Below, piece after piece: positions 2,990 to 64,000 of a DNA stretch of 64,000 nt (the stretch's first letter is position 1; the number at the start of each line of letters is the position of its first letter). The stretch lies in assembly GCA_964016885.1 (NCBI GenBank), contig OZ024743.1, positions 346,146,001 through 346,210,000 on the forward strand. The letters run 5' to 3'. The translations under genes were made by a program, and so were the position numbers. The DNA comes from Eledone cirrhosa. Taxonomy: Eukaryota. The notes under the pieces are model-generated. The model saw only the letters and a list, made by a program, of their open reading frames with translations. It was not told where the DNA came from and searched no databases.

Positions 2990-3198
2990 AAATTAATATA
3001 TCTATAACATATATATATACAGATGCATACTTATGCTAGCAAATATATAGGTTTTGCTTTAGTAACTTTGTGGTTCAATGCATGGGGATGCAGAACAATA
3101 ATATGAGAGACGTAAAAGAAGAAAATTATAGATTTAACTTACTTACTAAAATCTTAGTAAGTTAATTTTATAATTTTCTTATTTTACGTCTCTCATAT
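2990..3198. repeat. Fold-back remnant of the 522-bp element family
   Basis: Hairpin 3103-3198 plus a left extension matching 33058-33175 in reverse. Confidence 0.75.
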
Positions 3199-4010
3199 AT
3201 ATATATATATATATATATATATATATATATATATATATATATATATATATATATTTTATATATATAGGCTGTGAGGTCGATTCCTGGACCGAGCGATGCG
3301 TTATGTCCTTGAGCAAGACACTTTATTTCACGTTGCTCCTTCTACCTGGAGTTGTGACCGATAGATAGTACTAGCAACTGGAAAGACCAACGGAAACATT
3401 GTTTTCTCGGTCCGATTTGACGAAAGTCGATCGATTTAAAAAAAAAAATATATATATATATATATATATATATATATATATATATATGTGTGTGTGTGTG
3501 TGCGTGTGTGTGTGCGTGCGTGCATGTCCGTATTGATGTAGCATTAGCGAGAATATATATCTCATATTTGACAAGTACACTTTTCAAAGCTTAATCCAAA
3601 GCTTATGAATTAATTTCATTACACAGATACTGTTCGGAAGCAGTTTAAATTGACTGTACCTGTAATTCAAAGGTCCACCTTTGTTGCACTGAGTGTCGCC
3701 TTAAGAATTTCGTTAATAGTATATATGTGCGTGGTGTTTTGCATATGTATTCACTAATCACAGAGCATACGTTGAAACCTCTAGGTCCGGGGCACCTATT
3801 GGTGTGTTTACGCACAACACCGTTTATTCCACCATGTAACGTATTGTTACCATTCTGATATGCAAATTCGAATTACAACATAAGATGCTTTGTAAAATCA
3901 TTGAGTGAATGGTAAAGGGCGTTCTGGGAAAAATTCAATTTGCCTGTCTCTTTAAAGTTTATATATATATATATATATATATATATATATATATATATAT
4001 ATATAAATAT

Positions 4011-4683
4011 ATATCATAAAACATGTCTATAGAATCACAAGATAAAATATAAACTATTTCCACTCCCAATTAGCATAATTAACTATATAAGAAATCGAAT
4101 AGACCAGGCTATACGAATGAGGCTTCTATGAAGGAATCTCCGACAAATAACCGAAAGTAGCGCTTCGCGTCGGCCGTAGCGGAATATTTATCGAATATTT
4201 CGACAGCGTAATCGCCTAGATATAGTCAACTAAACAGAATTAGGTTTAAAATAAACAAGGAGATAATAGAATACATTTAAATACCTCTACCATGGTTTCG
4301 TCCGTGTTTTGAGTTTTCCAATAATTATGTAATAATTATATAAACTCGAGCGCCGGATTCTTCAGGAAGCTCGCTCATATCTACAGATTAAATTTTCCAA
4401 AACGATCGCGCCAAGAATTCATTGCAAAATGGCTAAAAATCGTGACGTAGTCGCGGTCAAGTTGGAAGGGGTGTGGTAGTTGCTTACGACTGGTGGCATT
4501 TTTGCTAGAAAGCACAGCACAATACAGGCAAATTTGTATCTCAACCTAGTGGGAGATTATTACATATAAAAGTTTACATATATATATACATACACATACA
4601 TATACGTGTTTTGCAACTGGTCACTTTGAGGCTCAATGAAAAATTAACAAGTTAAACATTCTATAGACATGTTTTATGATATA
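4011..4683 (-). mobile_element. Non-coding element with ~25-bp inverted ends and an internal hammerhead (4283-4370, minus)
   Basis: ATATCATAAAACATGTCTATAGAAT / ATTCTATAGACATGTTTTATGATAT ends. The minus strand reads GCTTC-CTGAAGA-aTCCG...CGGAc-GAAA-CCATGG-TA-GAGGT. Confidence 0.72.
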
Positions 4684-4850
4684 TAGCTCTGATTGTTTAA
4701 TTTATTAATTTTTATATGTATATAAATATATATATATATATACAGGGTGTACCCCAATATGCACACTTTTACAGCCTTTTATTATATTTATGTATGCATA
4801 ATTTGGGAACAGCCTTTATATATATATATAGTGTAGGTCATTCAGTGTAT

Positions 4851-59828: not shown

Positions 59829-61860
59829 CTACATTTTAAATTTATATTTATATTTAAATGTTGAGTTCAATCTATGTCTGCAACAGCTGAATAAATTGGT
59901 TCGTAAATTAAGGGAATTTTTAGATTTTAATATAAAGAATATCTCCTCCGCGCATAGGTCACAAGTCTCAGAAGAGGAATTAAAAGGAATCCCTTTTGAG
60001 ACTATATTCCAAACCATCGAATATCCAACTTTATCATGCTTAAGTTGCCAGAGTAACCCTGACAGCGATGTTGAGGATTTTTTATTTGGATCCGTGAAAG
60101 AGTTTTTGTGATTATTATAGCGAAGTTTAAATTCTGTCGAGGTGGATCCAACATAATTAAAAGAATTTAAATCAGTTCTAACATTACAGTTGTATATTAT
60201 ATTTTTAACTAAGCAATTGTTATTTAGCGGACATTTAGATCTATCTCTACAGTTAGTTTTTTAGTTGAATATTGTTTAGGCTATTTTCGGTATTTTGGCT
60301 AGGTTTTAGATTCCTATTATTTATTCTATTAATATTTTGTGCTAAATTTTTGGTGTACGAGTACGTTAATTTTATAGTATGTCTATTAAAAATTGAGTGA
60401 TACTTATGTGTTCTAGGGAAGCGTTTGTCAAGAGCATTAAAAAATAGTTTAGCGATGTGGGTTTTAATGTTTAGTGAGAAAGGGGGGGGGGGGGGGGGGG
60501 GGGGCAAACCATATTATATTTCTAGTTCTATTTCTTTTCTGGTTTTTGAAATTATTGTAGTGCTTTCTATTATAGTTGTTAAAGTTGTTACTGTAATTAA
60601 AATTGTTGTTATTTTGGTTAGTTTGTCTACTATCGATGTACATAATTTTATCACTATATCCTGCTCTCGCTAAAGCTTCATTATAATACTGGGCTTTTTC
60701 GTCAAAAATATTTTTATTGGAAGAGATTCTAGAGATACGTTTTTGAACAGAGTTCACTATAGTATTTTTGACAGATCTGGAGTGATTGGAGCTAAAATTG
60801 ACATAATTCAAGTTTTCATTTAACTTGTGAAATGGATAGTGAAGACATGTGTTGAGATTAAATGTTACGTCTAGGAAATTGACTATTCTATGGTTATTCT
60901 CAATTTCTATTTTTAGATGAAGGTAATTAAAAAATTGTATAATTTGTTTTCTTTTCTTATTTAGTTCAGAGTTATTATTTTCAATAAGTAAAAGCATGTC
61001 ATCTCTATATAAACCTCCGGTAACACCGGGTATTTTCCTCAGTTACCTGAGCTGAGTCTGATGATCCCATAGTAATGTCAAAATTATTATCTCTATCTGC
61101 CCTAGTCCATAGTTGGTTATTAAATTCTATCAAAGTTTTCCTTGCCGATAATATAATGTGCATTTCATTGCTAGTTAGGTCTGTATGCGTGAATGCGTAA
61201 TTTAGTGCCTTATTAAGTAGATTAGGGGTAATGGATGAATAGTAGTTAGCAATATCTAGTTGAATAAATTTATTATTATTGTTATATTTAATTTCATTAA
61301 ACCACTCAATGACCTCCCCAGTTCCCTTCCACAAGGTCAAGCCAGGTAAACAATTCAAGTCTTTAATTTGCTGTATCACTCTGTCTAGAATGTTCTTGCT
61401 AAGTTTACCCAGGTCAGATTTTGATGGTGCAATCAACCTGACTGGCAAGTCATTTTCAAAATTTCTCTTGTGATCTTTCATATTGATCTTGGGTTTCCTA
61501 GGCACGAAAGGTTGTGTTTTGTTCTCAATTTCCAACTCATGCATTATACATGATGCCTCAAGATTCATTTTCTCAAGTTCAGCTTTATCTGCTACCTTGT
61601 ACTTTTTCCTTAGTTCTTTCAGTATGAGGCCATTATACATGTATTTTTCCACTCCATAGAGGTTGTTGGTTTTGTCCGATTTCACCAAGATCTTCTCTGT
61701 TCTCTCTAAGATCGCAATATTATCCTTAATGCTTTTCAGATATTCCTGGCCATTGAAGTTTCTCTTGAATCTGACTCCTTGTATGATAGAAATTATATCG
61801 TTTTCAAAATCATTCAAAAGTTTGTTGGGGGTGGATTTTTTTTAGATTTGTTTTGCATAT
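59829..61860 (-). pseudogene. PLE RT/GIY-YIG pseudogene
   Basis: ORFs 61005..61817, 60464..60997, 60253..60507 and 59829..60017 are consecutive frameshifted pieces. Confidence 0.88.
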
Positions 61861-62376
61861 ATACTTATGTTTGAAGTTTTATCTCAGATTTTGCTTATAG
61901 ACCTAAGAATTTTTAACTGAGCATGTGGTCATTTTTTTCACACATTATGGATATGTGTCTCATTCATGAATACTGATATTTACATTATAATACCTAATTC
62001 ATAAAAATTGATAATTCAAATGGATGAGACATAATATATATTTTTAATATATTTTAAATATATCATCTTTCTTTCTTTTTCTCCTATACACTAATTTAAC
62101 TGTATCCCTTCCCTTAACCTCTCACATATACGATGATCATCTGTCAAAAAGCAGCCTACTATGTTTTTTCACCATCAATGTATTTCTCTCTCTCCTTGTC
62201 TCTCTATCTCGCTCCGTTGTTTTTCTTTGCATACATCTCTTCATCTTCTTCTTCTCATCTTCGTTTTCTTTCTATATAACTATCATAACAGTTTCACTAC
62301 CAAATCAACTTTTTAAAAGGAAGTTGCAATATCACAAGGTATGTCACTAATTATTTATAAAACAGCTTATGTATTG

Positions 62377-62442
62377 TATTTTGTCTGAGGAAGGCATAAC
62401 ATATTTTTAATATGATATCCCAGAAATATATATAACGAAATA
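62377..62442 (+). ncRNA. Hammerhead ribozyme (mirror copy at 58555-58620, minus)
   Basis: TATTTTGT-CTGAGGA-(stem II with CATATT/AATATG)-GAAA-T-ATAT-A-TA-ACGAAATA. Confidence 0.8.
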
Positions 62443-64000
62443 AATATGGTTTTATAAATATAAATATGGTTTCCATTTGTTTAATATCGTAAACCTACTC
62501 CAGAAACTGTTGAGTGCTTTTATATCAGTTATAAAATATTTACTCGTTGTAACCCAACAATCTTAAATAAAACTTTTGCATATATATATATATATATATA
62601 TATATATATATATATATATATATATATTACTCTTTTACCTGTTTCAGACATCCGGCTGCGGCCATGCTGGGGCACCGCCCCTGTATATATATATATATAT
62701 ATATATATACATATATATATATATATATATATATATATATATATACATATATATATATGTATGTATGTACATATATATCTTTATATGTATGTACATATAT
62801 ATATGTATGTATGTATGTACATATATATATGTATCGTAATTTGTCGGAGACAGAAACTAATTTCCTATATATCACCCTTTTTATGGGCGATATGTTGTGT
62901 GATGTCTATAAATCATGATGGCAAAATAAAGAAATAAGTTTTTAACAGAATGGTCATATCGAAAAAAATCTTCCTCCAACGCATGTCAAGATACCAATGT
63001 TATTATTGACATCATTTCTTTTTATATTATTTTATTATAGCATTTATACTTTTATGCTGCATCTTGTTTGGGAATTCATCCAAGTAACGGAATTTGCTCT
63101 TATTTTTATAACATTTTATTGTTTTTTAAATTTGGTATTACTTATTTTTTTCTCACACAAAATGTAAACGGCTAATCCTTCGTTAGATAATACCCTTGGG
63201 ATCAATGGCATCGTCCCTTAAATACTCTATGATTTTGCATGAGGTTATCACAATATATATAGATATATATCACAATATATATACATATATATATATATAT
63301 ATATATATATATATATATATATATATATATATATATATATATATATATATATATATATATATATATATGTGTGTATATATATTTATATATTATTTTTATT
63401 ATTATTACTATATATATATATGTGTGTATATATATAACGTGTGTCTGTGAATCTGTGTTTCTGTGTGAGTCAGTGCCTGTAGGTGCGCGCATATGTTTGT
63501 GTTCGTAAATGCACGAACAGAACTGGTCAATTTTTTGGCAGATAGAGTAAACATAGTTATATATACATCAGAAGACGAGAGCATGTTGATATTCCAAATC
63601 TCTCCATCTCTTTCTCTCTCTTTCACCCTCTTTCTCCTCTCTTCTCCCTCTGTCTTTATATATATATATATAAGCATGTGTGTGATTTTGTAAACATATA
63701 TACATATATATATATAAATGTACTAGCCCATGGATATATATTTATATGTGGAAATATACAAAGTCACACACTTATATATAGATATGATGAAGCGATAATT
63801 GTGGTACGAATTTTATTCCTCAACTTTGTTGTGTGATATATTCTGCTTCGGGCTTTTCATCAATTGACAAATATATCTTGTCCTAAAACAAAGATATGGC
63901 TAGAAACATGTTGATACACTGATGTATATTTTTTGAGCTTTATTTGCTACTAAACGTTTTGTTGATTTTGTTGTTTTTATGGACCATTGTTGTAAAGTTA

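Follow-up and report, generated by a model that had tools for sequence, protein, structure and literature searches.

Paired short and long 3' ends in inverted insertions of Hydra-clade Penelope-like elements and retrozymes of Eledone cirrhosa

Penelope-like elements (PLEs) of the Hydra clade carry a C-terminal endonuclease (EN), target (TA)n, and form inverted pseudo-long terminal repeats (pLTRs), often with a tail of 30–40 bp at one end (PMC8557442; this and the other sources are cited for the portions of their text that we consulted). In those portions the tail is optional and ascribed to EN resolution, no pairing rule is given, and the origin of the inverted structures is listed as open. 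Here we describe such elements in a 64,000-nt stretch of the Eledone cirrhosa genome (GenBank assembly GCA_964016885.1, contig OZ024743.1, positions 346,146,001 to 346,210,000; hereafter the window), in which self-comparison and reading of the sequence revealed many head-to-head inverted elements with outer ends abutting (TA)n. Judged by their sequences, they are Hydra-clade PLEs and two retrozymes. We found that their two arms end at two different fixed sites, one short and one long, with very few exceptions. The overall shape of these insertions is known in outline; the near-obligate short/long pairing, the longer tails, the length of the target stagger, and the evidence for a common template are new.

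Twin priming of L1 was reportedly described by Ostertag and Kazazian in 2001; twin-primed L1 arms copy non-overlapping stretches of RNA and arise in a minority of insertions. In this process both target overhangs prime on one RNA, which yields an inversion (reviewed in PMC9148063). For Poseidon PAc of the green anole, both target strands are nicked and extended in vitro, and reverse transcriptase (RT) starts at two internal sites that bound the tail (PMC11167929). Penelope families of the rotifer Adineta vaga have pLTRs inverted head to head, one of which bears a 31-bp tail, and target duplications of 8–10 bp (PMC3846280), while animal non-LTR retrozymes are non-coding tandem units with a type I hammerhead that are linked to PLE pLTRs (bioRxiv 10.64898/2026.07.22.740005). 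Across the open-access literature that we searched (subscription papers, including older Penelope reviews, lie outside it), we found no statement of a short/long pairing rule, of two-ended priming on one RNA for PLEs, or of such an insertion footprint for retrozymes.

The two-ended form occurs in at least nine families of the window, where a first-pass annotation made from the letters alone had counted about eight. These are the main family, A, with its open reading frame (ORF) at 51338–53779; B, at 58.5–62.6 kb; D, the family at 34377; E, at 9097–9311; G, at 10885–11056; C and F, built of tandem units of 439 and 524 nt; and H1 and H2, at 33.6–34.2 kb. We refer to the short end site as S, to the long end site as L, and to the stretch between them as the tail. 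For each of families A to G an exact pattern of 22–29 nt, placed upstream of S, was searched genome-wide and gave 5362 (A), 1183 (B), 18996 (C), 14662 (D), 36100 (E), 5988 (F) and 17877 (G) places. For family A, all of the first 100 places on contig C1 were examined. For the others we took the first 30, then minus/plus neighbours from places 31–100, for which orientation and distance were the sole criteria, a small number of long copies, and copies that happened to lie within other loci. This gave 248 segments, or 1.13 Mb of C1, to which the window was added; an earlier genome search biased to read-through copies was excluded from the counts. Pairs of C and F were called by motif, since a caller based on high-scoring segment pairs failed on F, owing to its internal inverted repeat, and to some extent on C.

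Among the 3' ends followed by (TA)n, 528 of 535 lay within 8 nt of S or L (A 115/115, B 88/89, C 51/53, D 110/112, E 60/60, F 46/48, G 58/58), with tails of 137 nt in A, 90 in B, 61 in C, 77–80 in D, 89 in E, 116 in F and 68–79 in G; the references for B, D and E stopped at L, and longer ends could not be placed there. Genome-wide, exact family-A junctions numbered 3540 at S and 4178 at L. The check for two-peaked, paired end points that the first-pass annotation had asked for found two sites and short/long pairs on C1, together with ends downstream of both sites, at 51276, 51333 and 51353, in 3 of 30 read-through-biased A loci; those at 51276 and 51333 have a short end as partner. Those S and L sites for which read-through sequence is known all match (TA)n by 1–6 nt. 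Since 5–15% of nearby positions match it by at least 3 nt and yet stay unused, pairing with (TA)n alone does not select the sites. Predicted folds, which are weak evidence, do not join S and L in a common structure but leave both mostly unpaired beside a structured tail. A word, TTGAGT, recurs in the tails of A, B, D and G about 50–70 nt upstream of L (e.g. 51129–51134 in the window) and is a candidate protein-binding mark.

The two sites are used one per end. Where both ends of an outward-facing pair could be classed, 192 of 194 pairs joined an S end to an L end (A 40/40, B 31/32, C 14/14, D 46/47, E 20/20, F 16/16, G 25/25), whereas independent choice would give about half; one of the 40 A pairs is doubtful, with a coverage of 0.20 between its ends, and one B and one G miscall were corrected by eye before counting. 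Coordinates alone tell the same story: with 188 ends listed over 0–99.7 Mb of C1, 50 of 51 outward neighbours within 15 kb were S/L, the sole exception being a nested copy, although this count overlaps the A pair sample. The opposed copies of the 3' end with short and long arms in (TA)n, first noted in the window, are confirmed for these families. Not every copy has two arms, however: about 27 of 110 family-A ends stand without a partner in the sampled DNA.

Next, we asked whether the two arms of an insertion share a template. Non-majority alleles were shared between arms far more often than between shuffled partners: 33 versus 3.1 (maximum 12) in A, 49 versus 11.4 in B, 43 versus 6.4 in D, and 29 versus 5.6 in G. 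As 139 of 154 shared alleles recur at other loci, we read them as marks of source lineages, and arms disagreed at only 5 lineage-marker sites. The 5' ends of arms speak for a shared template as well. In A, E and G they cluster in a hot spot where hammerhead stem I begins, or close by, and in D at a like position; no hot spot was found in family B or in the retrozymes. In family A the hot spot lies at 50835 and is likely the transcription start. Of the arms that stop there, 24 of 43 have a non-reference G in front of it, compared with 21 of 105 arms that stop elsewhere (p = 3e-5); this G is likely a copied cap, a reading that comes from L1 work. The two arms of a pair agree in 70 of 73 cases (23 of 23 in A), either both halting at the hot spot or both running past it, which indicates that they use the same pLTR copy. 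The junctions between arms were distinct in nearly every case (26 in 27 family-A pairs), with frequent short templated repeats, so the two-armed structure is built anew each time.

Traces of the target cut are visible where the target was interrupted. Direct duplications flanked 14 of 151 pairs, versus 2.7 in shuffles, and interrupted duplications of 12–17 nt flanked 9 of 151, versus 0.7 (maximum 4); within (TA)n itself microhomology hides the parity of the stagger, which was considered as a source of the S/L asymmetry. One family-A copy sits in a non-palindromic target and has the S/L form and a 13-nt duplication whose ends match S and L by 5 nt each. At C1:52246441–52247008 a family-A pair lies inside the hammerhead region of a family-B-like pLTR: one PLE took the A/T-rich ribozyme loop of another as its target.

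We consider it likely that a staggered cut frees two 3' ends and that both are primed on one RNA, one at S and one at L. The EN would cut both target strands about 13–17 nt apart to leave two 3' overhangs, each of which would anneal through 1–6 bases to one of two sites inside the RNA, both lying downstream of the hammerhead. Occupation of one site would leave only the other free, or two RT active sites might hold both at once; the genome data cannot tell use in turn from joint holding, and they fit S as the leading site. Synthesis of both complementary DNAs (cDNAs) would proceed towards the 5' end of the RNA, with the leading cDNA displaced by the one behind it. Most would stop at the capped 5' end within the 5' pLTR, giving the very common hairpins of 150–600 bp, while priming in the 3' pLTR would give kilobase arms. 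Host end-joining would then link the two cDNA ends, often with templated insertions, and failure at one end would leave a solo arm. Because the L arm would re-create both sites, nearly every two-armed insertion should keep an arm able to template the same structure. Each insertion, the data suggest, lengthens the (TA)n tract and leaves a DNA hairpin.

The first-pass annotation had proposed two defined A/T-rich sites primed in opposite directions, and strict pairing, shared alleles, target duplications of 13–17 nt, and (TA)n matches at both sites all bear this out. It had also taken the self-complementarity of (TA)n as the enabling feature. This did not hold up, given the S/L form and 13-nt duplication of the copy in a non-palindromic target, and the rotifer elements, with an inverted pLTR, a tail, and duplications of 8–10 bp, likewise argue against a need for a palindromic target (PMC3846280).

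Several points weigh against priming of both arms on one RNA. The evidence for the mechanism is a genomic footprint throughout, and it comes from one contig and, because patterns were matched exactly, is biased to young copies. Pairing has two exceptions, one S/S pair in D and one L/L pair in B (C1:85478864–85485205), the latter being a 1538-bp, 99.9% identical inverted duplication of the B end and its interrupted TA flank. Candidates with an end at neither site were left unclassed (5 in B, 10 in D, 3 in E and 4 in G, 22 in total, plus one in A), several of the D cases being L ends of diverged subfamilies. Family E gave no allele signal (0 shared in 8 pairs). Shared alleles would also arise from two RNAs of one source locus or from gene conversion between the arms at a later time, and some of the extra Gs could derive from the opposite arm. 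The arms of long pairs overlap by kilobases, which on one RNA would need long strand displacement. Finally, for Poseidon the two strands were reported not to differ in start site, and the start site to have no homology to the cut DNA or primer (PMC11167929), in contrast to the (TA)n matches seen here. A further palindrome lies in the flank beside the L/L pair.

Kilobase overlaps would need no strand displacement if two RNAs from the same source locus, held together by a protein dimer or by a hammerhead dimer, templated one arm each, and if asymmetry of the complex set which arm ends at S and which at L. The hammerhead loops III of A, B, C and F are palindromic, which suits dimeric ribozymes. 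A dimer is also predicted for the Poseidon protein (PMC11167929). Equal RNAs, however, offer no reason for the near absence of S/S and L/L pairs (2 of 194), and the shared alleles and common pLTR copy would require the two RNAs to share both a locus and a binding mode. We regard two templates as unlikely.

S/L pairing, shared alleles and matched 5' stops would be explained together if an L-primed cDNA folded back at its 3' end, was copied as far as S, and was resolved there by the EN. Ideas of self-priming and of EN resolution have been proposed (PMC3846280 and PMC8557442), and the 5' ends of the two arms do lie within 20 nt of each other in 78 of 135 pairs, often as near-perfect hairpins. In 46 of the 135, however, the S arm extends more than 20 nt further 5' than the L arm, 19 of them having no arm overlap, and so it holds sequence absent from the L arm. 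This is impossible for a folded copy without a later one-sided deletion at the hairpin tip, which is the remaining escape for such a model. Moreover, 27 pairs combine an S arm that is complete up to the hot spot with a short L arm and 7 show the reverse; the target duplications, with their matches at S and at L, agree with priming at both ends; and in a relative the RT starts at both sites in vitro (PMC11167929). We give fold-back little chance. In the case of priming at S and L on one RNA, the bias of 27 to 7 fits S as the leading site.

That the hairpins are assembly artefacts, or that one inverted unit is copied whole like a miniature inverted-repeat transposable element, is highly improbable: such loci do trouble assemblies (PMC8557442) and at one B locus the inverted duplication is near-perfect and takes in the flank, but the arms differ by 0.3–4% in substitutions, nearly all junctions are different, the arms end at different fixed sites, and target duplications flank the insertions.

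Priming at two fixed sites works like twin priming, but not in its L1 form. L1 uses a poly(A) tail and a variable site in mid-RNA (PMC9148063), whereas the elements described here use two fixed internal sites, have overlapping arms, and insert mainly in the two-ended form. Poseidon PAc shares A/T-rich cut sites with the elements described here, and dispensable hammerhead cleavage is a Poseidon feature, but it belongs to a different clade, and its description, in the text consulted, deals neither with inverted insertions nor with coupling between the sites (PMC11167929). The Adineta vaga families were studied in few copies and read as self-priming on an antisense template (PMC3846280), which the arm lengths here disfavour. 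Compared with Hydra-clade elements, the likenesses are many: RT followed by GIY-YIG, RW(K/R), DKT, the CxCX5C linker, absence of CCHH, CxxC with CxH, type I hammerheads, a (TA)n target, partial tandems, an inverted 5'-truncated copy, and a tail often at one end (PMC8557442). Lengths differ. Against the 30–40 bp given there for Hydra tails, tails here are 61–137 nt in the seven surveyed families and about 37 nt in H1 and H2, and the family-A S arm reaches about 7 kb where less than 3 kb is given for Hydra elements (PMC8557442).

Thousands of young copies turn an 'optional tail' into a near-obligate rule of two sites, one per end, on the same template, with a stagger of about 15 nt, and this rule supplies the in vitro assay that already exists with exact substrates and predictions. 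Whether it extends further is, in our judgement, an even bet: coupled two-site priming may be the normal insertion pathway of endonuclease-bearing PLEs, in which one RNA would program both ends of a break staggered by about 15 nt, reverse transcription would make the junctions of both strands, no separate second-strand priming would be needed, and retrozymes would be carried by the same two-site signal. If so, the 'optional tail' would be one obligatory half of all complete insertions in the PLE superfamily.

The uninterrupted ORF of family A (51338–53779, plus strand) encodes 813 amino acids (aa) in a single frame, with RT followed by C-terminal GIY-YIG and Hydra-clade motifs. A Pfam search returned 0 families and a sequence search of the PDB no real match, so the assignment rests on motif reading. 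RVRWRA is an RWR variant of the RWK-type motif and SDKT has DKT in place of DKG, as in the ORFs linked to B, E and G; CNCRNKANC is the CxCX5C linker, CRLCSQE and CNH supply CxxC and CxH, the motifs that surround a conserved E and N, and VY..YIG lies near the C-terminus. The EN has no CCHH, and no CxxC was found between VY and YIG. The insertion preference of the Hydra clade is likewise present, with 115 A ends followed by TA.

Long copies of B, D, E and G lead into RT/GIY-YIG frames of their own, 40–48% identical to A (D at C1:175300, E at C1:36310600 and C1:5038754, G at C1:10751000). A single autonomous RT/EN serving a guild of ribozyme parasites, as first suggested, is not supported; C and F alone are non-coding tandem retrozymes. 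The three 'tiny' families once counted among the parasites, D, E and G, with hairpins of 150–250 bp, are minimal insertions of coding families because each has related frames of its own, and a status as non-autonomous parasites without a coding master was ruled out by the same frames. At 40873–42428 (plus strand) the window also holds broken frames of another Hydra-like family, 36–54% identical to A.

Hammerheads were called by motif because an Rfam scan of the window gave none among the best 150 of 351 matches, which were sub-threshold microRNA-like matches on simple repeats and hairpins; cleavage is therefore only predicted. Canonical type I motifs were found in A and B by descriptor, in G by explicit stems, and in C and F. 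The descriptor missed G, whose loop III is beyond its range, and the window copy of F, with an altered stem I, both of which were checked by eye or by explicit stems. Hammerheads had at first been ascribed to all families. This was too broad: D has no CUGANGA core, E keeps the full type I topology but has CAGAAGA as its core (36 of 36 copies), and no hammerhead was matched in H1 or H2 with the descriptor used. The ORFs of D and E are Hydra-like although the canonical hammerhead core is absent. Family D keeps a mere hammerhead-like stem arrangement (e.g. 40240–40330) and E an altered core (e.g. 38499–38560), yet both are very abundant, in line with hammerhead cleavage being dispensable. Hammerhead cleavage as the source of 5' arm ends was rejected, as about 5 A arms end near the cleavage site versus about 36 at the start of stem I.

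Families C and F form arrays of several units with one type I hammerhead per unit, and their longest ATG ORFs are 79 aa in C and 39 aa in F, which fits non-coding tandem retrozymes. They show the same S/L footprint as the PLEs, in 30 of 30 pairs. This footprint ties retrozyme mobilisation to PLE machinery and points to a PLE protein as the probable mobiliser; a term search of the consulted text of the retrozyme preprint did not return 'tail', 'target site' or 'priming' (bioRxiv 10.64898/2026.07.22.740005).

In the window, family A is represented by two large elements. The first has an L arm with a 5'-truncated ORF (18832–20871) at 15550–20807 on the minus strand and an S arm at 20813–20975 on the plus strand. 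The second has an L arm at 44666–50112 (minus) and an S arm at 50113–57941 (plus) that comprises the 5' pLTR, ORF, 3' untranslated region and 3' pLTR. The pLTR carries its type I hammerhead motif at 50832–50985 (plus; end approximate) and its tail, from the S site at 51049 to the L site at 51186, at 51050–51186 (plus). Both elements had been reported to end at the same sites. Their short ends, at 20973–20975 and 57940–57941, agree, while their long ends, at 15550 and 44666–44670, differ by 4 nt, and the coordinates given from the letters alone are right to within a few bases of microhomology. A repeated family with a type I hammerhead motif (core 44515; 44401–44622; 10 further matches in the sample) has its end in the (TA)n tract that also borders the family-A long end. 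Family B has an S arm with broken ORF pieces (59859–61826) at 58508–61853 (minus) and an L arm with a type I hammerhead motif (core 62385) and the 90-nt tail at 61854–62579 (plus). As described before, the ORF may lie on either arm: at 15.5 kb the long arm has it, whereas at 57.9 and 58.5 kb the short arm does. In long A elements either arm may be the longer.

One retrozyme C locus (unit of about 439 nt) has an L arm on the minus strand and an S arm on the plus strand (28884–29476; tail 61 nt); the other has an S arm on the minus strand and a two-unit plus arm interrupted by family F (32009–33057). The short ends that had been noted at both loci were found at 29476 and 32009, but the second locus has no long end, as its right arm is cut by the F unit at 33058. 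That unit is an F monomer of 524 nt (33058–33582, plus; hammerhead core 33455) ending at S, and a minimal F pair in L/S order, tail 116 nt, lies at 2988–3194. Inverted duplications of flanking sequence, centred on (TA)n, occur at 5517–5789 and at 28652–28877 / 29467–29688, with no other copy in the 1.13-Mb sample; retrozyme C occupies the centre of the latter. They resemble fold-back at a (TA)n break, perhaps after cuts without insertion.

Family D, whose two ends were as first described, has minimal pairs at 9404–9549 (L/S) and 34377–34564 (S/L; tail 77–80 nt, without a canonical hammerhead core), an L arm with an S arm of a few bases at most at 38315–38465 (minus), and a pair at 40158–40339 whose right end, at −11 from S, was left unclassed by the caller. 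Family E has a minimal L/S pair with an 89-nt tail and the CAGAAGA-core topology at 9097–9311, and a solo S arm that begins at the 5' hot spot at 38499–38570 (plus). The minimal L/S pair of family G (10885–11056) carries the canonical type I hammerhead motif; the family has two S sites, separated by about 11 nt, and a tail of 68–79 nt. H1 (33606–33885, L/S) and H2 (33902–34151, S/L) have tails of about 37 nt, as judged from the window copy alone.

Two further features lie outside these families. A frequent short repeat, in tandem and inverted pieces, is found at 4818–5240, 6709–7037, 8180–8312, 24397–24734, 30190–30394, 31779–31975 and 35991–36159; it is mostly not tied to (TA)n, has no hammerhead by the descriptor, gave 210 matches in the sample, and is SINE-like (short interspersed element) by appearance only. 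At 13032–13799 (minus), an endonuclease/exonuclease/phosphatase frame below the Pfam cut-off is likely the remnant of a long interspersed element.

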